Positions 537 through 21,962 of a stretch of DNA of 64,000 bases are shown piece by piece. The stretch spans positions 331,723 through 395,722 of the forward strand of contig CAZMLK010000001.1 of NCBI GenBank assembly GCA_964567265.1, written 5' to 3'. Every line of letters begins with the position of its first letter. Within the stretch, counting starts at the first letter, position 1. The translations under genes and the position numbers were made by a program. The DNA comes from an uncultured Candidatus Saccharibacteria bacterium (lineage in GTDB: Bacteria > Patescibacteriota > Minisyncoccia > Phycocordibacterales > UBA12088). The notes beneath the pieces are model-generated. The model had not been told where the DNA came from. It was given only the letters and a program-made list of their open reading frames with translations, and made no database searches.

Positions 537-607
537 GGGCCTATAGTTCAGCGGTAGAATGCATCCATGGCATGGATGAGGCCGGGGTCCGACTCCCCGT
601 AGGTCCA
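537..607 (+). tRNA. tRNA-Ala (anticodon GGC), atypical T-loop
   Basis: Cloverleaf read by hand: acceptor GGGCCTA/TAGGTCC with G3:U70 Ala identity pair, anticodon loop ATGGCAT, discriminator A; T-loop reads TCCGACT (C at position 55 instead of U). Confidence 0.75.
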
Positions 608-641
608 CAGGATTCGGGAGAAGGAAAAAATTGAACCCTTT

Positions 642-673
642 GTCGGGGTGTAGTACAGGGGTAGTATACACGC
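642..673 (+). repeat. 32-nt direct duplicate of tRNA-Pro 5' half (acceptor 5' strand + D arm + 5' anticodon stem)
   Basis: GTCGGGGTGTAGTACAGGGGTAGTATACACGC occurs identically at 642-673 and 691-722; second copy is the 5' part of the intact tRNA. Confidence 0.9.
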
Positions 674-692
674 GCGGGGTTGGATTTTGTGT

Positions 693-763
693 CGGGGTGT
701 AGTACAGGGGTAGTATACACGCTTCGGGTGCGTGAGACCCGAGTTCGATTCTCGGCACCCCGA
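693..763 (+). tRNA. tRNA-Pro (anticodon CGG)
   Basis: Acceptor CGGGGTG/CACCCCG (C1:G72 as in bacterial tRNA-Pro), D stem GTAC/GTAT, anticodon loop TTCGGGT (CGG, G37), T loop TTCGATT, discriminator A. Confidence 0.85.
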
Positions 764-777
764 CACAAAATCTAACC

Positions 778-797
778 AAAAGTCCTGCGGACTTTTG
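778..797 (+). terminator. rho-independent terminator after tRNA-Pro
   Basis: AAAAGTCC-TGC-GGACTTTT perfect 8-bp stem with U-tract. Confidence 0.6.
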
Positions 798-803
798 CGG
801 CAT

Positions 804-861
804 GTCGGAAGAGAGACCTGAGTTCCATTCTCCTACGAGAGGACAGGCCGGCACTCCGACA
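804..861 (+). pseudogene. decayed tRNA-Pro-like remnant (internally deleted copy)
   Basis: GTCGGAAG..GAGACCTGAGTTCCATTCTC..insert..GGCACTCCGACA parallels tRNA-Pro acceptor 5' strand and GAGACCCGAGTTCGATTCTCGGCACCCCGACA 3' half, with point changes and a ~17-nt insertion; D and anticodon arms missing. Confidence 0.5.
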
Positions 862-874
862 AAGAGTTTAAAAT

Positions 875-948
875 GGGCGCGTAGCTCAGTTGGTTAGAGC
901 GTACGCTTCACACGCGTAAGGTCACAGGTTCGATCCCTGTCGCGCCCA
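875..948 (+). tRNA. tRNA-Val (anticodon CAC)
   Basis: GGGCGCG acceptor, D arm GCTC-AGTTGGTTA-GAGC, anticodon loop TTCACAC, T loop TTCGATC, CGCGCCC-A 3' end. Confidence 0.9.
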
Positions 949-961
949 CAGGAAAAGATAT

Positions 962-1034
962 GGGCCTGTAGCTCAGCTGGTAGAGCGCTGCATTCGCATT
1001 GCAGAGGTCAGGGGTTCGACTCCCCTCAGGTCCA
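962..1034 (+). tRNA. tRNA-Ala (anticodon CGC)
   Basis: GGGCCTG acceptor with G3:U70, anticodon loop TTCGCAT, T loop TTCGACT, CAGGTCC-A. Confidence 0.9.
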
Positions 1035-1109
1035 CCGAGCAAGGCGAGGTACTGAGGGGGGGACGGCCGGAAGGAAATCTCCCCCGGACATTTTCTGGAG
1101 AATCAGTAT

Positions 1110-3190: not shown

Positions 3191-3886
3191 ATGAAGGGCG
3201 TTATTCTTGCAGGCGGACTTGGAACACGGCTCCGTCCCATCACGCTCGAGATTCCCAAGCCGCTTCTCACGGTGCACCGGAAACCGATTGTCGAGCACAT
3301 CGTCGATCGGTTTCGTGTCGCGGATATACAAGAGCTTTTTGTGATTGTAAATGAAGCTGATTTGCCTCTTTTCGAAAAATGGAAGCGAGATGCCGCTCCC
3401 GAAGTCACGCTAGTCACGGAAGTCGGAAGACTTGGTACATGGGGCGGGCTCATCAGATACCTCGGCCCTAGACTTACCGAGACGTTTGTAGTCGCAAATG
3501 GTGATGTGCTGAACGCGGTATCACTCGCGGATCTCGTCATCGCGCATCAATCGAGCGATGCTTCGATCACGCTCCATACAGTCGAAGTCCCGAACCCTTC
3601 GGATTTCGGCGTATTCGAGAGCGATGCGGAAGGAGTGATTCGAAAATTCCACTACAAGCCGGCAGAACCGCCCTCACGGTACATCATGTCGGGCGATTAT
3701 GTCGTCGAGCCGTCGGTGCTTCTCCGATGTCCTGATGCGGACGTCGTCTCTTTCGAAACGGATGTCCTGCCTAATGAAATCGCGGCAGGTACTGTTCGAG
3801 AATTCCAATCGGCAGGGCAGTGGCACGACTGCGGGACCTTCGACCGGTACGAAAAGGCGATTTTGGAATGGCCGAAAACAGTGTAG
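3191..3886 (+). CDS. sugar-phosphate nucleotidyltransferase (NTP_transferase family)
   Basis: MKGVILAGGLGTRLRPIT..KPLL glycine-rich nucleotide-binding motif; alternative upstream starts TTG 3146/ATG 3152 overlap the terminator. Confidence 0.8.
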   Translation: MKGVILAGGLGTRLRPITLEIPKPLLTVHRKPIVEHIVDRFRVADIQELFVIVNEADLPLFEKWKRDAAPEVTLVTEVGRLGTWGGLIRYLGPRLTETFVVANGDVLNAVSLADLVIAHQSSDASITLHTVEVPNPSDFGVFESDAEGVIRKFHYKPAEPPSRYIMSGDYVVEPSVLLRCPDADVVSFETDVLPNEIAAGTVREFQSAGQWHDCGTFDRYEKAILEWPKTV

Positions 3887-3897
3887 TATCAGAAGTT

Positions 3898-4728
3898 ATG
3901 CACGAACCATTCATCCAGAGGCAGGTCATCCCGCTCGCTTTGACGATCATCATATTCGGTATCCTCGTCGTGGTACTGGCTGGCGAGATCCTCGCACTCA
4001 ACCATTTCACGGATGCAGATATCCTTTTCCACATACGCCCATTCGATATTCTTATCGGGCTCACTATCTACCTGAAGACATCAATTGATTTCGCGATTTT
4101 CATGGGCAGGCTCATGGACCAGTTCGGCGGTTGGAAGAATCGTATCGCGATCGAGATCGGGACCGCGGTCGGTAATGCCGGCGGCACCATGATCGTGCTC
4201 GCGATCTGGGCCTTCTTCAAGGAAGTCGAGATTCTTCTTGCAGTGATGATCTTCCTTGCCGCACTCGTATTGTTCCGCCTTGCGGAAGAGGGGCTCGAGC
4301 ATGCTGATGCGGGAGACAACAAGTTCCCGAAATGGTTCCAATTCATCGTCACGGGCTTCAGCCACGCGCTTGCTGCGGTGAATGCGGTCATTGCGCCTGT
4401 TCTCAAATATGTCGTCCCGAACCTAAAGGCGAAAGTCGGCGTCCGGACGACCTTCTGGTCCTTGTTCGCATTCTCGTTCAGCGTCCCTTTCATCCTGGGC
4501 CTCGACGACTTCGCAGGGTACGTGCCGCTTTTCAGTATCGTAAGCGTGTTCGGATTCGCGATCGGCGTCTTCCTCGGGCACATGATCCTCAATATCTTCC
4601 TCTATCTAAATCCTGCGGTCACGATTCGCATCGTGAAGAATCCGATCATCTCATTCCTCGGAAGTGTCGCGTTCGTGGGCCTCGGTGTCTGGGGACTGAT
4701 AGAAGTGTTCAAAATTCTGATGCACTAG
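3898..4728 (+). CDS. multi-pass membrane protein, unknown function
   Basis: ~8 predicted hydrophobic helices; alternative starts at 3868/3820 overlap upstream gene. Confidence 0.6.
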   Translation: MHEPFIQRQVIPLALTIIIFGILVVVLAGEILALNHFTDADILFHIRPFDILIGLTIYLKTSIDFAIFMGRLMDQFGGWKNRIAIEIGTAVGNAGGTMIVLAIWAFFKEVEILLAVMIFLAALVLFRLAEEGLEHADAGDNKFPKWFQFIVTGFSHALAAVNAVIAPVLKYVVPNLKAKVGVRTTFWSLFAFSFSVPFILGLDDFAGYVPLFSIVSVFGFAIGVFLGHMILNIFLYLNPAVTIRIVKNPIISFLGSVAFVGLGVWGLIEVFKILMH

Positions 4729-5851: not shown

Positions 5852-5860
5852 TGTTACAAT
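5852..5860 (+). promoter_or_regulatory. atp operon promoter, extended -10 TGTTACAAT
   Basis: TGnTACAAT ending 10 nt before ATG 5871; implies very short or no leader. Confidence 0.45.
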
Positions 5861-5870
5861 GCGGGCGTTT

Positions 5871-6614
5871 ATGGAACACGGAATCCACATCGCGCTGGCA
5901 CCTGAGGTGCTTTTTCATATAGGGAGTTTGCCAGTGACGAATACCCTGGTGACCAGCTGGGCAGTCATCTTGCTTCTTGTTGGACTCGCGCTTCTCGTCG
6001 GAAGGCGGCTTTCCCTGATTCCGGGTCGCATTCAGACCCTCTTCGAAAGCGGAATCGGTTTTGTGTATGACTATGTAAGCGAGATCTTGGGTTCTGAGGC
6101 GCTTACGCGGCGTTTCTTCCCGCTCCTCATGACGCTCTTCCTCTTCATCTTTGTCTCGAACCTCCTCGAATTCACTCCTGGCATTGGAAGCATCGGATTC
6201 TTCCACGAGGGGGAATTCATCCCTCTCTTCCGGAGCGTCAATACCGACCTCAACGTGACCCTGGCGCTCACCATCATCGTCGTCACGATCATAGAGATCT
6301 CAGGAGTCATCGCGCTCGGTTTCTTCCGGTACGGAGGCAAGTTCCTTAACTTCTCGTCGCCAGTCAACTTCATCGTCGGCATTATCGAGCTCATCAGCGA
6401 GATCGCGCGCCTCATCACCTTCTCCTTCAGGCTTTTCGGGAACGTGTTCGCAGGCGAGGTGCTTATCGCAGTCGCGACCTTCTTCGTGCCCTACATCCTT
6501 CCGGTGCCGATCATGGCGTTCGAGATGTTCGTGGGCTTCGTGCAGGCAGCGATCTTCACGCTTTTAGCCCTGTTTTTTATCAAGCTCGCGGTCACGGACC
6601 CTCACGCTCACTAG
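5871..6614 (+). CDS. atpB: F0F1 ATP synthase subunit a
   Basis: SFRLFGNVFAGEVL (conserved Arg motif), multi-TM; upstream ATG 5859 lies inside the -10 element. Confidence 0.9.
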   Translation: MEHGIHIALAPEVLFHIGSLPVTNTLVTSWAVILLLVGLALLVGRRLSLIPGRIQTLFESGIGFVYDYVSEILGSEALTRRFFPLLMTLFLFIFVSNLLEFTPGIGSIGFFHEGEFIPLFRSVNTDLNVTLALTIIVVTIIEISGVIALGFFRYGGKFLNFSSPVNFIVGIIELISEIARLITFSFRLFGNVFAGEVLIAVATFFVPYILPVPIMAFEMFVGFVQAAIFTLLALFFIKLAVTDPHAH

Positions 6615-6676: not shown

Positions 6677-6925
<249 letters not shown>

Positions 6926-6938
6926 CCCGACCGGTGTC

Positions 6939-7388
6939 ATGGGAGATCTCTTCTCGACATTTGGCATCAATGGCTATCTCCTCCTTACCCAGGCGGTGAA
7001 CTTTGCTGTTCTCTTGACGGCGCTCTGGTACTTCCTCTACAAGCCGGTGTTCAAGCTGCTCGATGAGCGGAGCCGTAAGATAGCTGAAGGTGTCCGCGAG
7101 GCAGAAGCGGCAAAGGAGAAATTGAGGGAGGCCGATAGCGAAAAGCAGAGCATCCTTAAGAGTGCGAACAGCGAGGCCGAAGGCATCGTCTCGAACGCGA
7201 AGGAATTCGCGGCTTCGAAGGGCGACCAGATGGTCAAGGAAGCGCAGGCAAAAAGCGAAGCGCTTCTTGCAGAAGCAAAAATGCGTGCCGAGGAAGCCAA
7301 GAAGAAAGCACTCCAGGAAAGCGAGGCGGAAGTCGCGCGCATGGCCATCCTTGCAGCTGAAAAGGTGCTTACTCAGAAACACGGCTAG
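6939..7388 (+). CDS. atpF: F0F1 ATP synthase subunit b
   Basis: single N-terminal TM then long charged coiled coil (AEGVREAEAAKEKLREA..). Confidence 0.9.
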   Translation: MGDLFSTFGINGYLLLTQAVNFAVLLTALWYFLYKPVFKLLDERSRKIAEGVREAEAAKEKLREADSEKQSILKSANSEAEGIVSNAKEFAASKGDQMVKEAQAKSEALLAEAKMRAEEAKKKALQESEAEVARMAILAAEKVLTQKHG

Positions 7389-7391
7389 CAT

Positions 7392-7769
7392 ATGGCACTT
7401 GCTTCTGAATATGCCGCGCTCCTCGTAGAGCTTTCAAAGTCCGCTGAGACTGCGAAGGTTGAGGAGGAGTTTCTCGCGCTTCTCGAGAGGCGAGGTCATC
7501 TGAAGCTGCTTCCGAGCATCGTGACTGCCTACGAGCGCCTCATCGCAAAAGAGAAGAGCGTCTCTGAGCCTGTGCTTACGATCGCACGTGAGTCGGACCG
7601 CCAGGGAGCGCTCGCCGCGGCAAAAGTGGAAATGGGCGGAGCGGTGAGTCCGCGCGTCGAGATCGACGCGAAGCAAGTCGGCGGATGGAGGCTCCAGAAT
7701 GGAAGCACGCTCATCGATCGCACGGAGAAGCGCATGCTCCTCGATCTCTACCGGAAAATGACTGCCTAA
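7392..7769 (+). CDS. atpH: F0F1 ATP synthase subunit delta (short, 125 aa)
   Basis: Position in operon and C-terminal [22 protein letters not shown] resembling OSCP/delta C-terminal motif; N-terminal domain shortened. Confidence 0.8.
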
Positions 7770-7782
7770 TTATTTAAATACC

Positions 7783-9357
7783 ATGTCACACACCACACTC
7801 ATCGAGCGGCTCAAGAAGGAAATCGACGGTTTCGTCCCGGACGGAGCGTCCGAGAATGTTGGTCGTGTCACCGCGGTCGGCGACGGGATCGCGGAAATCA
7901 GCGGTCTTTCGAATGCGGTCATGTCCGAAATGATCATCTTCGATGATTCGAGCGATAAGTCTCTTGCAGAGGCGACGAACGCGAGCGATCCGATCTACGG
8001 ACTTATTTTGAATCTTGAAGAAGACGTCGTCCGCGCCGTCATCCTTGGAGAGACGCGCCGCGTGCGCGAAGGCATGCTTGCGAAATCAACCGGCAAGGTG
8101 CTCTCGATTCCTGTTTCAGACGAGCTCCTCGGCCGTGTCGTTGACCCCTTGATGAATCCGATTGACGGCAAGGGCGCGATCAAGGCGGACAAGTGGAATC
8201 CGGTCGAGCGCGTCGCGTACGGCGTCATCGAGCGAAAGTCGGTGGATACGCCGCTTCACACCGGCATCAAGGCAATCGACGGCATGGTCCCGATCGGCCG
8301 CGGCCAGCGCGAACTCATCATCGGCGACCGCTTCACCGGAAAGACTACGATCGCGATCGATACCATCCTCAATCAGAAGAGCGAGCCGGAGGGGTCGCGC
8401 CCGATCTGTATCTATGTCGCGATCGGTCAGAAGGAATCCAAGACCGCCCAGCTCGTCGGGCTTCTCAAGGAGCGCGGCGCGATGGACTACACGATCGTGG
8501 TGTCCGCGCCGGCGTCGGCCCCAGCGGCACTCCAATTCCTTGCCCCATTCGCCGGCGCCGCTGTCGGAGAATATTTCATGCAGAAAGGGAAGGATGCGCT
8601 CATCATCTACGATGACCTCTCGAAGCACGCGATTGCGTACCGCCAGATGTCGCTCCTCCTTCGTCGCCCACCAGGACGCGAGGCATATCCGGGAGATATT
8701 TTTTACCTGCACTCACGCCTCCTCGAGCGTGCCGCGAAGCTTTCCGATGCCCTCGGCGGCGGCTCTCTGACCGCACTTCCGATCATCGAGACGCAGGAAG
8801 GTGACGTGTCCGCGTACATCGCGACCAACGTGATTTCGATCACGGACGGGCAGATTTTCCTCGTGACCGATCTTTTCAACAAAGGCATGCGCCCGGCAAT
8901 CGACGTCGGTATCTCCGTGTCGCGCGTCGGCTCAGCCGCACAGACAAAGGCGATGAAGAAGGTCGCTGGCAAGATCCGTCTCGAACTCGCGCAGTTCCGC
9001 GAACTCGAAGCATTCATGCAGTTCTCTTCCGATCTCGACGCGGGCACCAAGAAGCAGATCGACACTGGCATCCGCCTCACTGAGTCACTCCGCCAAGGCA
9101 AGAACATGCCGATCCCGTTCGAGAAGCAATCGGTGATCATCTACGCCGCAACCAAAGGATTCCTCGACACCGTCGCGGTCAAGGACGTCCTTCCTCTCGA
9201 GGAAAAGCTCTTCGCGTACCTTGAGCGTGAGCACGCGCATATCCTGAAAAACATCCGTTCGGAGAAGGCGATCTCTGATGCGACTGAGGCTGCGCTCACG
9301 GAGGCATTCGCGGGATTCAAGATCGCGCACGCTGAACTCTTCACAAGGACTCAATAA
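7783..9357 (+). CDS. atpA: F0F1 ATP synthase subunit alpha
   Basis: [18 protein letters not shown] Walker A, 524 aa, alpha-specific C-terminal region. Confidence 0.97.
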
Positions 9358-9366
9358 TATCCAAAC

Positions 9367-10179
9367 ATGAGTATCACGCAGAAGAAATTGTTCATCACGA
9401 GCGGATGTCTCTTTGCACTCATAATTGTTGCGGGATGTTACTTGATCGTGAGCGAAGCACGAACACGCCTTCTTTCGCAAGCAGAACTTGCGCGGTTGTC
9501 TACTGCTGATGAATCGGATGCGACTGTTGACTCTAGGTATACAGAGGGCGGCGGCGTATCGCGAAATACGCCAATGATGGAAGAGTATCTCAAAAGCATA
9601 CACGCAGCATACCTAGCAGAACCGAACGGCGCCTCAAAGGTGTATGTACTCCGCGACGGAAAAATTTATTTTGTCGCAAATCAGAACGTCGCCAACGAAA
9701 GCGGATTGAAGCAAATCATAGATGCGGATGCGAAATCGTTTACTGTGCTGTATGAGGCGGGGGAACATGATGCGTATGCAAAGGATGTGCATCATGCATA
9801 TTTTTTTGACAGGACCTTGCAAGGTGTCGATGCGGCCTCGTTTGAGCCGATTGTGTATTTCGGAAAGGAAGGAAACTCAACTTTTTTCAAGGACAAGAAC
9901 TACTTGTACAAGTGGAATGACGGAAAAACTGAATTTGCGCAGGTACCGAATGCGGACCCCGCAACCTTCACTCTCATTCCAAGCACTCGCATGACAGGTA
10001 ACGGTGAAGCCAACTATGCAAAAGACAAGAATCAGTTCTATTGCCAGGGAAATGTCAGCGTAATAGATCCTGCAACTGCTGTGGTGCACCCCATTGAGGA
10101 TACGAATACGGGCGGAGTGAATGACGAATACATTACGGATAAAAACGGTCAGTACTCAGGTACCTGCGTGAAAAAATAA
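9367..10179 (+). CDS. DKNYY-like repeat protein, N-terminal membrane anchor; inserted in atp operon
   Basis: N-terminal hydrophobic helix; 4-5 repeats of (Y/F)aKDKNy.Y..g...adpATF.l (FKDKNYLYKW, AKDKNQFYCQ, ITDKNGQYSG); markedly AT-richer than flanking atp genes. Confidence 0.7.
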   Translation: MSITQKKLFITSGCLFALIIVAGCYLIVSEARTRLLSQAELARLSTADESDATVDSRYTEGGGVSRNTPMMEEYLKSIHAAYLAEPNGASKVYVLRDGKIYFVANQNVANESGLKQIIDADAKSFTVLYEAGEHDAYAKDVHHAYFFDRTLQGVDAASFEPIVYFGKEGNSTFFKDKNYLYKWNDGKTEFAQVPNADPATFTLIPSTRMTGNGEANYAKDKNQFYCQGNVSVIDPATAVVHPIEDTNTGGVNDEYITDKNGQYSGTCVKK

Positions 10180-10186
10180 ATCGTAT

Positions 10187-12524
<2,338 letters not shown>

Positions 12525-12726
12525 CAAAATGAAAGGCCTGGTCTCCTAGGGAGCACAGGCCTTGAGGCTTCAGAATGTTCTGACTTCTAATATCGATTCA
12601 GAAATGCAACTCCTACCTGGATCGCAGGGAGATATAGGAAGAACGCTTTGCCGAAATCAAACCATGTTTCCATCGCACATCCTCCGACATTTCGCTCAGT
12701 CCATACGTTAGGTTTTTTAGATACAC

Positions 12727-12966
12727 ATGTCAACATTCCATATACACATCGCATCGGTGGACGACGTCCTTTTTAGCGGCGAGGGCGAGGCCGTTACGGT
12801 GCCTGGAAGCGAGGGGGTCATGACCATCCTCGCGCATCACAGCCCGATCGTCTCTGCCCTCAAGGAGGGTACCGTCATCGTACGGGCATCTGGAGGAGAG
12901 CAGCACTTCGAGATCAAGCGGGGCGTGCTCGAAGTCTCGAACGACGCCGCGACGATCCTTCTCTAG
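12727..12966 (+). CDS. atpC: F0F1 ATP synthase subunit epsilon (beta-sandwich domain only, 79 aa)
   Basis: Operon position; SGEGEAVTVPGSEGVMTILAHHSPIVSALKEGTV pattern of epsilon N-domain; C-terminal helical hairpin absent. Confidence 0.85.
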   Translation: MSTFHIHIASVDDVLFSGEGEAVTVPGSEGVMTILAHHSPIVSALKEGTVIVRASGGEQHFEIKRGVLEVSNDAATILL

Positions 12967-13022: not shown

Positions 13023-13661
13023 ATGTACCGAGAAGGAGCGAATTTGAATGAAGCCGAAGCAGCTGAAGGCGAACAGCTTTCAGGCATTGAAGCCGGCGAA
13101 GGTTTGGCCGAAGGAGCGGCAGAGAAACGAAAGGCTTTTACTGAAGACATGGAGGCGGTGAGCAGTATCCAGGAGCTTGCGGATGTACTCATAAAGCATG
13201 CCGATGATGAAACGGCTCTTCTCACGCTCGGCGCCGGCGAGCATGCAATGCAAGTGCCGCTCCACGAGATTTTGAGATTGGTAAATGATAAGGATTGGAT
13301 GGCACTCCGTACGAACTACCAGGATGACGCGCTTGAACAGGTACTCTTCAAGCTCCGTTTGAGCGAGGAGACGGCGTCTGACGAGCGTGAGCGAGCTCAT
13401 TTTGAGAACAATCGCGCGGCGTTCATAAGCGCCGTCCAGGGAGCGGGGAGTCTCGAAGGCGTCGCGGATGTGCTGACCCAGTTTGCAAATCCGGATACCA
13501 ACATGGTCACTCTCGGCGTCTTCGACAATGCGCGGGAAGTGCCCCTTGATGAGCTTCTCGAGATCGTCAAAGAGGGCCAGTGGTCAGCGATCGGGCGAAA
13601 GTACGGCGGCATCGACGACATGCTCGAGAACGCGATATTCAAGCTGGCTACCGCAGAGTAG
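13023..13661 (+). CDS. hypothetical protein with internal ~65-aa tandem duplication
   Basis: Two similar segments (ELADVLIKHADDETALLTLGAGEHAMQVPLHEILRLVNDKDW.. and GVADVLTQFANPDTNMVTLGVFDNAREVPLDELLEIVKEGQW..); TGcgTATACT promoter upstream. Confidence 0.6.
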   Translation: MYREGANLNEAEAAEGEQLSGIEAGEGLAEGAAEKRKAFTEDMEAVSSIQELADVLIKHADDETALLTLGAGEHAMQVPLHEILRLVNDKDWMALRTNYQDDALEQVLFKLRLSEETASDERERAHFENNRAAFISAVQGAGSLEGVADVLTQFANPDTNMVTLGVFDNAREVPLDELLEIVKEGQWSAIGRKYGGIDDMLENAIFKLATAE

Positions 13662-20692: not shown

Positions 20693-21784
20693 TTATTGCG
20701 ATACTCGAGACAATACGAACGTACAGAGCCTCTGAAATACGACCGCGATGCCGATAAGGAGTGGTAGGTATAGGAGTGTCGCTACTGCCGGCGGAAGTGC
20801 TTGATACAAGACTTCGTATCTTGAAATGAGTGGCCAGTGGAAGAGGTAGATTTCGTACGAATAAAGCCCGAAGAGTGCAAAAAAGCCAAATTCAAAACGC
20901 GAGAGAGCAAGGAGTGCGATTACCAGAAGCATGGTTACGATACTGATTGATTGCTCGAGCGTAATCGAACCACCGACGCCCGAATGGATCGCGAGATGGC
21001 TGATTCCGGCAGCAAGTAGAGTGACTGCAATGATTCTTGAAGGAATGGGCATGTCCGCAATCCGCTTGCCGAGCTCAAGCTTCCGTACCCGTGCCGATGA
21101 TATCGTCCAGGCAGCAAGCATCCCAAGAGGGAACGCAATCAGATGTACCGCATAGAGTCTGACAACATCGGCGATATATGCGGGCTCAATGAAGATGATG
21201 CCGTACGTGAATGCATAGAGCAAAAACGCTGAAAGCCACGGCCGTGGTCGGGAGAAAAACAAAGGGAATGCGATGTAGTAGAAGACGATGATGGTGAAGT
21301 ACCACATCGGCGAATTGATATCTGTGAAGGCGTTCGCGCTCGTGAATATGCCTAGCGCAGACTGTAGCAGGTATGAAAGCGAATAGTATTTTGAAAGTAT
21401 GAACCCATCGAGCGCTGTAAAGATCGCAAGCGCAAGCCAGAACGGGATGTAGAGCCGCGGCAACTGCTCTCGGTAAAATTTCAAAATCGAGTTGTCATGC
21501 GAAAGGGCATACAGCGTACGTCCGTATCCCGAAAGAAAGAGGAACAGATTGACTGCGACGCCTGCAAAGATTGAAAAAGGGAAGAGGAATGCGGGAGTAT
21601 CGGAAAGCAGATATCCGATATGGGCAAAGAAGACCGCAAGGATCGCAAATCCCTTAAGTTCCGTCGTCCGTTCAAGCGGTAAGAGGTCAACATCCGTCCG
21701 GCGCCTTGCAGAAAATAAAATCGCTAACACAAGCGCTGCGGTGACAACCATAGTCGACAACACTGGATTTTCTATATGAATCAT
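20693..21784 (-). CDS. acyltransferase family 3 membrane protein
   Basis: ~10 TM, LKGFAILAVFFAHIGYL motif typical of acyltransferase_3 (OafA/OpgC-like); possible upstream start at 21820. Confidence 0.8.
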   Translation of the reverse strand: MIHIENPVLSTMVVTAALVLAILFSARRRTDVDLLPLERTTELKGFAILAVFFAHIGYLLSDTPAFLFPFSIFAGVAVNLFLFLSGYGRTLYALSHDNSILKFYREQLPRLYIPFWLALAIFTALDGFILSKYYSLSYLLQSALGIFTSANAFTDINSPMWYFTIIVFYYIAFPLFFSRPRPWLSAFLLYAFTYGIIFIEPAYIADVVRLYAVHLIAFPLGMLAAWTISSARVRKLELGKRIADMPIPSRIIAVTLLAAGISHLAIHSGVGGSITLEQSISIVTMLLVIALLALSRFEFGFFALFGLYSYEIYLFHWPLISRYEVLYQALPPAVATLLYLPLLIGIAVVFQRLCTFVLSRVSQ

Positions 21785-21962
21785 GTCTCGACATCCTTTC
21801 ACATGCAGCATGGATTGCAAATGAATGGATGGCCAGCATCATTTTCTACGGACCAGAGTTGCCGCACTGTCAAACCCGTGTCCCCATTTGCGAAATGAGA
21901 CGCTTCATTTACAACACATGGATTCGTTGTACAATGCCTCTATTACGAGCTTAGCCAATCCT

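Follow-up and report, generated by a model that had tools for sequence, protein, structure and literature searches.

A compositionally foreign DKNYY-repeat gene lies between atpA and atpG in the ATP synthase operon of a Saccharibacteria strain cluster

Within the 64,000 nucleotides of Saccharibacteria DNA analysed here (the window), all eight subunit genes of an F1Fo ATP synthase were identified on one strand (+) and in canonical order, with one further gene placed among them. The Fo subunits are encoded by atpB (subunit a, 251 aa; 5859-6614), atpE (subunit c, 75 aa; 6698-6925) and atpF (subunit b, 149 aa; 6939-7388; PF00430, E 3.4e-21). These are followed by atpH (delta/OSCP; 7392-7769), a short form of 125 aa that matches PF00213 (E 5e-10) over profile positions 52-171 only, and by atpA (F1 alpha, 524 aa; 7783-9357; PF00006, PF00306 and PF02874), which has 78% identity to the atpA of the relative L002. 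A 270-aa ORF (9367-10179, +, ATG start) comes next, and then atpG (F1 gamma, 306 aa; 10187-11107; PF00231, E 4e-84), atpD (F1 beta, 462 aa; 11136-12524) and atpC (epsilon; 12727-12966), whose 79-aa product comprises the N-terminal beta-sandwich only (PF02823, E 1.1e-18). Subunits b, delta, alpha, gamma and epsilon were assigned from Pfam matches of their own, subunits a and c through the identical genes of L001 (PF00119, with orthologues in relatives found by tblastn, and PF00137, respectively), and beta through an 87% identity to the L002 atpD together with PF00006 on the L094 orthologue. A sequence-only reading of the window had proposed the order atpB-E-F-H-A, 270-aa ORF, atpG-D-C, with gaps of 9 and 7 nt around the ORF; Pfam and tblastn bore out this order, and the ORF and both spacers are as described.

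The upstream spacer (TATCCAAAC; 9358-9366, +) separates the atpA stop codon (TAA, 9355-9357) from the ATG of the insert, which is in the same reading frame as atpA, and is identical in the L094 copy. The downstream spacer (ATCGTAT; 10180-10186, +) runs from the TAA of the insert to the ATG of atpG and is unchanged in the strain variants. Neither promoter-like nor terminator-like sites were found in these two spacers, and from their shortness and the absence of such signals we infer that the insert is co-transcribed with the atp genes. A terminator-like scan did return a hairpin within the insert ORF (9766-9806, +; 12 pairs, four of them G-C, followed by CATATTTTTT) with a fold energy of -15.3 kcal/mol (z = -2.45). 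Terminator-like sites numbered seven compared to 8.1 expected by chance, and this one is probably incidental.

By its profile match the inserted protein is a member of the DKNYY family. PF13644 was matched at 54.5 bits (E 2.6e-14), twice the gathering cut-off of 25, over residues 93-263 and profile positions 1-137 of 141. About five DKNYY-type repeats had been counted by eye and five cores were indeed located, at residues 96, 139, 175, 219 and 257 (RDGKIYF, KDVHHAYF, KDKNYLY, KDKNQFY and TDKNGQY, in that order), with a literal DKN..Y in three of them. The cores alternate with DAKSF, DAASF, DPATF and DPATA at a period of 37-44 aa. The Pfam range, the motif positions and an AlphaFold model together delimit a domain of five beta-rich repeats of ~40 aa (residues 93-263; 9643-10155, +), which was modelled confidently (pLDDT block means 76-95, mostly at least 80) and in which Cys226 and Cys267 are conserved in an alignment with the closest homologues. 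A Foldseek search of the PDB gave no convincing fold, with weak beta-propeller-like matches (E at least 2e-3, TM at most 0.31), and a sequence search for relatives of solved structure returned only chance antibody matches at E of at least 0.08. NCBIfam and PHROGs held no family for the protein, and no paralogue was detected in the window by tblastn. In the literature, DKNYY occurred as a gene-table entry in one paper with no informative account, and a search on the Saccharibacteria ATP synthase operon returned nothing specific.

The family had been described as otherwise known from Fusobacterium-like surface proteins, which proved too narrow. The named homologues belong to Bacteroidota, Acidobacteriota, Actinomycetota and Parcubacteria, and proteins labelled as DKNYY domain-containing include those of Dyadobacter, Runella, Chitinophagaceae, Pyrinomonadaceae and Parcubacteria. 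A HMMER search found 707 representatives matching the protein at E of 1e-3 or below, with a best identity of no more than 42% among 1.84 billion representatives. PF13644 was precomputed on 12 of 12 matches from one search of sequence neighbours and on all 120 matches listed of 123 from a second. Family members share ~40-aa repeats in which KD(K)N..Y cores alternate with D-P/A-x-T/S-F; most are 250-700 aa long, and those inspected carry an N-terminal signal or anchor, as is predicted for the insert protein. The latter falls in a small sub-group with its closest homologues P0016 (42% identity), P0025 and P0027, which are short (250-290 aa) and anchored; the sub-group is marked by a repeat number of five and by an FYC...C motif conserved at the tail. 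The genes of these homologues adjoin inositol-phosphatase, UvrB/MurB and dcw-cluster genes, on contigs of ~47% GC (L089, L090) and 57% GC (L091). Unlike the insert, no examined member of the family lies within an atp operon. The family is a known one, and the location is unusual but not unique.

An N-terminal anchor had been read from the sequence, and one hydrophobic segment is present (residues 8-28; 9388-9450, +), following K6 and K7. Its maximum Kyte-Doolittle score over 19 residues is 2.4 (residues 10-28) and it coincides with an AlphaFold helix at residues 6-27; no further segment reaches 1.6 and the remainder of the protein is hydrophilic. A single N-terminal hydrophobic segment behind positive charges is the pattern of a Sec-exported or anchored protein, and the segment is predicted to be a signal anchor, a signal peptide or a lipoprotein signal. 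A lipobox-like VAGC at residues 21-24 follows K6, K7 and a 13-residue h-region and fits the lipoprotein pattern ([LVI][ASTVI][GAS]C), but the hydrophobic residues continue past Cys24. In the homologues P0016 and P0025 a comparable hydrophobic segment is present, with no Cys at the lipobox position, and P0027 has a shorter, unscored hydrophobic N-terminus. Between the segment and the repeats lies a low-complexity linker (residues 29-69; 9451-9573, +) that is predicted to be disordered (residues 28-67 in the AlphaFold model, with pLDDT below 50 at residues 25-36 and 47-67). It is from the one hydrophobic segment that we infer the label of surface protein.

The insert is compositionally foreign. 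Its GC content of 0.469 and GC3 of 0.502 are below those of the genes of the window (0.554±0.029 and 0.654±0.078, respectively), in line with the AT-richness noted from the letters. The atp genes had been put at ~60% GC; they are richer than the insert, but range from 55 to 60% and are not uniform (GC and GC3 of 0.587 and 0.741 for atpA, 0.604 and 0.735 for atpD). The deviation goes beyond amino-acid content, as the GC expected from the amino acids of the protein and the codon usage of the window is 0.537±0.009, which places the observed value at z = -7.0. In amino-acid-corrected codon choice the insert ranks second among 41 genes for atypicality. An Acyl_transf_3 gene elsewhere in the window (20693-21820) is equally atypical in codon choice. 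The synonymous-codon log-likelihood of the insert was -1.11 under the tables of L089 and L090, -1.15 under that of L002 and -1.20 under that of its own genome; atpA and atpG displayed the opposite pattern, with the own-genome table fitting better. Low GC3 could in part come from weak codon selection linked to expression and not from a foreign origin.

The insert was carried by three strain variants only, recovered from six assemblies (L001, L092-L095 and the NCBI contig of 621,860 bp) with identical junctions; as these six independent assemblies agree, an assembly artefact was ruled out. In the next relative, L096 (89% amino-acid identity in atpG), atpA ends in ELFARA and its stop codon, and an 11-nt spacer leads directly to atpG. 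The insert was likewise absent from L002 (atpG 69%), L097 (67%) and L099 (67%); none of 80 metagenome atp loci gave a DKNYY match, and the gene was in none of ~85 other related atp operons. An ancestral position at this junction is not supported by this synteny, and judged by its distribution the insertion is recent and restricted to a strain-level cluster. The view that a horizontally acquired gene has entered a housekeeping operon is supported by the composition, the codon usage and the absence from relatives. A mobile element with its own machinery was considered and rejected. With only 16 nt beyond the ORF, the insert leaves no space for mobility genes; no integrase, transposase, att site or tRNA site was found with it, and it had no match in phage and plasmid collections or PHROGs. 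The only repeat at the junctions is a 5-nt AATAA on both sides, overlapping the two TAA stops.

Comparison of the strain variants revealed a block of low divergence. Between the window and L094, pS was 0.075 in the 3' part of atpA and 0.022 in the insert compared to 0.358 in atpG and 0.365 in atpD, and the switch from low to high divergence falls between 10060 and 10210. The DKNYY gene is 99% identical across strains whose atpG and atpD differ by ~7-15% in nucleotides, as would be expected from recent spread between lineages. The one length difference is an in-frame gain of 6 nt (Thr-Asp) in the disordered linker of L092 and L094, and the insert of the window differs from that of L094 by four synonymous and three non-synonymous changes, seven substitutions being too few to demonstrate purifying selection. 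The in-frame indel and this ratio indicate that the ORF is coding and intact.

Our preferred reading, to which we give a probability of about 0.7, is that a short DKNYY-repeat gene was recently gained by one Saccharibacteria lineage (TM7, Patescibacteria), that it was placed precisely in an atpA-atpG spacer of the 11-nt class within an otherwise canonical F1Fo operon, and that it yields a Sec-exported, membrane-tethered putative binding protein from the atp transcript. The insert would be transcribed within the atp polycistron, there being no room for a promoter or terminator of its own, and translated from Met1. The K-K pair and the 21-residue hydrophobic segment would direct the protein through Sec, and it would be held at the cytoplasmic membrane either by a signal anchor or as a lipoprotein via VAGC 21-24, with a disordered stalk of ~40 aa bearing the ~170-aa beta-repeat domain outside the cell. 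This domain most probably binds a host-cell or environmental ligand and may form part of an epibiotic, strain-variable surface repertoire. The protein would probably be unrelated to ATP synthesis, and its atp location would provide constitutive expression. The conserved atp genes may serve as homology arms, by which the block would move between related lineages through homologous recombination. Strain-variable surface proteins of epibiotic Saccharibacteria offer a general parallel, in that the insert, too, is confined to one cluster of strains, its product is predicted to be exposed, and the organism is of the Saccharibacteria type, with a Candidatus Saccharibacteria MAG as its closest genome; this is an analogy and not a claim of membership.

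Four other explanations were weighed against this reading. The true product might begin at Met70 (9574-9576, +), giving a cytoplasmic DKNYY protein of 201 aa that lacks the anchor and follows a 216-nt untranslated spacer, possibly with regulatory signals. Met70 is the start annotated for this genome in the public NCBI record, and it is also used in the gene calls of two Logan assemblies, and neither candidate start is preceded by a Shine-Dalgarno motif. Such a motif is found at almost none of ~44 genes, however, and because the genome uses none the AT-rich leader at Met1 is typical. The frame is also open from 9367, the sole inter-strain indel in the first 69 codons preserves the frame, a canonical K-K and hydrophobic segment with hydrophobic counterparts in the nearest homologues is specified by codons 1-28, a scan of 9358-9573 gave no promoter-like site, and the two cysteines that the subfamily conserves suit an extracytoplasmic domain. 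On these sequence features we argue that Met1 is the better start, and initiation at Met70 appears improbable. A role in the enzyme itself is very unlikely. F-type ATPase operons may carry extra genes, among them atpI upstream of atpB, atpZ in Bacillus and atpQ/atpR in N-ATPase operons, all of which are operon-conserved, lie at the 5' end and have polytopic membrane products that act on the synthase. The insert resembles these in being small, predicted to be membrane-associated (like the Fo sector) and encoded within, and presumably co-transcribed with, the ATP synthase genes. Its tight packing between two F1 genes, and the trimmed delta and epsilon of the operon in this lineage, for which compensating parts are conceivable, would also suit a lineage-specific accessory or assembly factor. 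It differs, however, in lying between F1 alpha and gamma, in its strain-restricted distribution and foreign composition, and in a large predicted extracytoplasmic domain; most of the protein is predicted to lie outside the membrane, in contrast to the cytoplasmic F1. Nor does it keep company with atp genes, being absent from L096 and every other related operon, with its closest homologues encoded away from atp genes, and unrelated genes (ORF6N, DinB, a MazF-like toxin) are found at the same junction elsewhere.

An ancestral gene at the junction, lost repeatedly and low in GC through amino-acid bias and weak expression, can draw on the Lys, Asn, Tyr and Asp richness of DKNYY repeats, through which the GC to be expected falls to 0.537, and on the DKNYY proteins of Parcubacteria, since members of the family thus occur within Patescibacteria. 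It would demand a clean loss in every lineage from 89% down to ~35% atpG identity, mostly leaving spacers of 2-60 nt, and the codon deviation persists after amino-acid correction (z = -7) while the subfamily homologues occupy unrelated loci; we consider it very unlikely. A recent arrival may instead be a neutral or slightly deleterious hitch-hiker with no selected function, kept as it is young and its deletion risky to the operon. The very narrow, strain-level distribution, the unameliorated composition, the uninformative count of substitutions and the many unrelated kinds of insert at the same junction are all compatible with this. Against it, the ORF has stayed intact in three variants that span the atpG/atpD differences given above, its one indel being in-frame, and divergence in the block is far below that of the genes downstream of it. 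Saccharibacteria-type genomes are also small and streamlined, and a core operon in such a genome should not keep useless DNA for long. We judge a hitch-hiker unlikely, though not negligibly so.

The junction between atpA and atpG held an unrelated insert in 11 of 78 related operons (~14%). Inserts at this junction included a 327-aa anchored protein in a Saccharibacteria relative (L098), two-TM proteins of 90-96 aa (L026 and L030), DinB (L032), NTPase_I-T with a PemK/MazF-like protein (L037) and ORF6N (L052, L057, L058 and L079). All are on the same strand as the DKNYY insert and those inspected, such as that of L098, have short spacers. The L098 protein has a single N-terminal hydrophobic segment, as in the DKNYY protein, and its gene is lower in GC than its flanks (0.465 compared to ~0.51), but the two proteins have no sequence similarity. 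The L098 insert is also polymorphic among contigs with identical atpG. The lack of similarity to the DKNYY protein indicates independent captures of different genes, and the presence of ORF6N, DinB and a MazF-like toxin at one junction indicates a permissive site. More tentatively, accessory genes, often for exported or membrane proteins, might be captured and exchanged repeatedly at both junctions flanking atpG, in Saccharibacteria as well as in neighbouring lineages. They would borrow the constitutive atp transcript and spread across lineage boundaries of roughly 90% identity by homologous recombination, the DKNYY gene being one such cassette; we hold this broader proposal to be possible but doubtful.

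If these readings are correct, foreign genes are tolerated even in the most highly conserved housekeeping operon of a bacterium that is streamlined and host-dependent, specifically at the two junctions flanking atpG but not inside the Fo part. Inserts of this kind can then encode exposed proteins that vary between strains, candidates for host recognition in epibiotic Saccharibacteria; what is known of the ATP synthase itself is unchanged. Presence or absence of a gene between atpA and atpG would then also be a cheap marker of recent gene flow among uncultivated Saccharibacteria.

The F1Fo ATP synthase operon was complete on the + strand of the window (atpB, 5859–6614; atpE, 6698–6925; atpF, 6939–7388; atpH, 7392–7769; atpA, 7783–9357; atpG, 10187–11107; atpD, 11136–12524; atpC, 12727–12966) and held one extra ORF between atpA and atpG (9367–10179, +; ATG start, 270 aa), an intact DKNYY-family gene that was compositionally foreign, tightly embedded and strain-restricted. 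This insert began 9 nt after the atpA stop (TATCCAAAC) and ended 7 nt before the atpG ATG (ATCGTAT); the coordinates, gaps and gene order of the sequence-only reading were exact. It shared its reading frame with atpA, lying one TAA and three codons downstream (9352–9369); read-through of the atpA stop would give an atpA-DKNYY fusion, and the shared frame is probably a coincidence with one chance in three. The inserted segment had the pentamer AATAA at either edge (9353–9357 and 10175–10179), overlapping both TAA stops; it is possibly microhomology from illegitimate recombination, though too short and AT-rich to serve as evidence. The delta subunit (7392–7769) had only 125 aa, corresponding to OSCP profile positions 52–171, and epsilon only 79 aa, comprising the N-terminal beta-sandwich without the C-terminal helices. 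The atpD-atpC gap was 202 nt (within 12525–12966); a related Candidatus Saccharibacteria MAG (L002) resembled the window, its gap measuring about 210 nt and its epsilon being likewise short (82 aa).

The insert had a GC content of 0.469, compared to 0.554±0.029 for the window genes, 0.587 for atpA and 0.604 for atpD, and a GC3 of 0.502, compared to 0.654±0.078, 0.741 and 0.735, respectively. Amino-acid content accounted for only part of this gap, as the GC expected from the insert's own protein with the window's codon usage was 0.537±0.009 and the observed value was 7 SD lower, bearing out the AT-richer composition first noted by eye. The synonymous choices of the insert scored −1.11 to −1.15 per codon under foreign usage tables (lower-GC relatives and the contigs bearing its two closest homologues) compared to −1.20 under its own genome, and atpA and atpG displayed the opposite preference. 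Among 41 genes it was the second most codon-atypical, exceeded only by an Acyl_transf_3 gene (20693–21820, −; 375 aa; GC 0.491; z = −7.25), itself another candidate for recent acquisition.

The organism is of Saccharibacteria type; the best genome match was L002 (atpG 69%, atpA 78%, atpD 87%), with flanking synteny common to both. Six assemblies carried the insert in three alleles, ruling out an assembly artefact: one was identical to the window (L001, SRR16481186) and the others, L092, L093 and L094 (SRR31757426/30/29), L095 (SRR28480386) and the NCBI contig, had identical junctions. The next lineage, L096 (atpG 89% aa identity; ~75–93% nt identity in 200-nt windows), had no insert, its atpA ending ELFARA* 11 nt before atpG. 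The insert was also absent from L002 (124-nt spacer), L097 (131 nt) and L099 (atpA abuts atpG), and no DKNYY match was found in 80 metagenome loci with atpG 35–57% identical; relatives thus did not carry the same gene at this junction. There was no DKNYY paralogue within the 64-kb window. In an exhaustive HMMER scan of 1.84 billion representatives the best identity was 42%, and the three best matches (P0016, P0025, P0027) had the same short anchored architecture. Their genes adjoined inositol-phosphatase, UvrB/MurB and dcw-cluster genes and none adjoined atp genes; two of their contigs were ~47% GC like the insert and the third (L091) ~57% GC. Presence in a single strain cluster, absence in relatives and homologues at unrelated loci point to a recent, lineage-restricted acquisition, plausibly from a lower-GC lineage within the phylum, and gene gain inside an operon is an already known type of event.

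Comparison of window 8302–12524 with L094 (1–4229) displayed low divergence in the 3' two-thirds of atpA (pS 0.075) and in the insert (pS 0.022; 7 substitutions and one in-frame indel), 3' atpA and the DKNYY gene being 98–99% identical, compared to pS 0.358 in atpG and 0.365 in atpD. The switch was sharp, falling between 10060 and 10210 at the insert's 3' edge. L095 was close to the window but had a patch of a third allele at ~10300–10500, and the operon is a recombination mosaic. Because divergence jumps at the insert's 3' edge, either the atpA-insert block would have moved by homologous recombination between populations or the downstream genes would have been replaced; neighbouring genes of the exchanging populations differ by ~10%. 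Either direction would fit, as the 5' boundary of the low-divergence block lay beyond the ends of the contigs compared.

Were the gene ancestral at this junction and repeatedly lost, clean loss would be needed everywhere and the codon deviation would be left unexplained. A role for the protein as an ATP-synthase accessory factor was contradicted by the distribution of the insert and by the genomic contexts of its homologues. A neutral hitch-hiker is a less likely reading: substitutions were too few to show selection, but the frame is intact in backgrounds that have diverged and the block itself has diverged little, both of which argue mildly against it. Horizontal acquisition of a gene embedded in the operon, as initially proposed, was supported by checks put forward along with it, namely composition and the comparison with relatives.

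Spacers longer than 250 nt were present at atpA-atpG in 11/78 related operons and at atpG-atpD in 13/68, compared to 0/40 at atpB-atpE and 0/39 at atpE-atpF, and the Fo-gene junctions of these operons showed no inserts. The contents of the long spacers flanking atpG were mutually unrelated, and at atpA-atpG included ORF6N proteins (L052, L057, L058, L079), DinB (L032), an NTPase_I-T with a PemK/MazF-like toxin (L037) and 90–96-aa two-TM proteins (L026, L030); L034, L071 and L085 also had inserts there. Inserts at atpG-atpD occurred in L010, L015, L022 (a 2.5-kb multi-gene block), L025, L043, L060, L070 and L076. Most telling was L098, a Saccharibacteria relative (atpG 68%) with a 327-aa ORF at atpA-atpG (3610–4593, +; spacers of 12 nt and 3 nt; GC 0.465 compared to ~0.51 in the flanks). 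Its product has a single hydrophobic segment at the N-terminus and a linker rich in Ser/Thr, with no Pfam, NCBIfam or PHROGs family and no similarity to the DKNYY protein; the ORF was absent from a second contig with an identical atpG. Since unrelated inserts recur there, the junctions around atpG are permissive, recurrent insertion points, so the insertion into a housekeeping operon is present as described but at a recurrent soft spot and not as a unique breach. In Saccharibacteria, these junctions may be a site at which accessory genes for exported proteins are captured and exchanged. Putative antisense ORFs with hydrophobic segments in 450–700-nt atpG-atpD gaps of the closest genomes, L002 (6971–7468, −) and L097 (5512–5748, −), would split the operon at that point.

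The insert product matched Pfam DKNYY (PF13644; E 2.6e-14, 54.5 bits against a cut-off of 25 bits) over residues 93–263, and is a new addition to a known but uncharacterised family, which is not Fusobacterium-specific, contrary to the earlier attribution. Five repeat cores (RDGKIYF 96, KDVHHAYF 139, KDKNYLY 175, KDKNQFY 219, TDKNGQY 257) were interleaved with DAKSF, DAASF, DPATF and DPATA at a period of 37–44 aa. The N-terminus, MSITQKK followed by a 21-residue hydrophobic stretch, contained the sole hydrophobic segment (Kyte-Doolittle 19-residue maximum 2.4, residues 10–28). An AlphaFold model built from 120 homologues (mean pLDDT 74.8) predicted a helix at 6–27, disorder at ~28–67, then a short helix and, at 93–264, a beta-rich domain whose 10-residue pLDDT block means were 76–95, mostly ≥80. 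Sec would export the product, which would then be membrane-tethered and display its beta domain of five repeats on a flexible stalk; of the proposed surface protein, the anchor is predicted and exposure is probable. V21-A22-G23-C24 fits a lipobox, and because the nearest homologues lack that Cys, the anchoring could be by signal anchor, cleaved signal or lipoprotein. Cys226 was invariant within the closest sub-group and Cys267 kept in 2/3 homologues, P0027 instead having a Cys a few residues upstream, a pattern consistent with an extracytoplasmic disulfide. Sequence search found no relative of solved structure, Foldseek with the model gave weak propeller-like resemblances only (TM≤0.31) and a literature search for DKNYY domain activity found nothing. 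Ligand or host binding is tentatively the leading candidate role, by comparison with exposed proteins built of repeats.

The main technical alternative is a cytoplasmic 201-aa product starting at Met70, as annotated in two Logan assemblies and in the public NCBI record for this genome, whose 621,860-bp contig also carries identical atpA and atpG. We prefer translation from Met1, because no stop interrupts the frame after 9367, the sole between-strain indel in codons 1–69 is an in-frame +6 nt, the anchor is canonical and homologues have hydrophobic N-termini (an equivalent segment in P0016 and P0025, a shorter one in P0027), and the AT-rich leader resembles those of other genes in the genome. 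Almost none of the ~44 gene starts of the window had a Shine-Dalgarno motif, leaders being short and AT-rich; start codons in this genome cannot be called on that motif, which probably explains the conflicting 270-aa and 201-aa annotations. The insert's two spacers contained no promoter-like or terminator-like sites, which suggests transcription together with the atp genes, a softer statement than the 'must' of the sequence-only reading. A 12-pair hairpin followed by a T-run (CATATTTTTT; 9766–9806, +; −15.3 kcal/mol, z = −2.45) lay inside the insert ORF, unaltered in strain variants. It was terminator-like but was treated as incidental, being AU-rich and within translated sequence, and such sites were no commoner here than in shuffles.

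Downstream of atpC, an ORF (13023–13661, +) encoded an acidic 212-aa protein with no Pfam or NCBIfam family and, by eye, a ~65-aa unit duplicated within it (…VPLHEILRLVNDKDW… / …VPLDELLEIVKEGQW…). The window and L094 diverged most in this region. The only Rfam families in the window were four tRNAs clustered at 537–1036 (+): Ala-GGC, Pro-CGG, Val-CAC and Ala-CGC.
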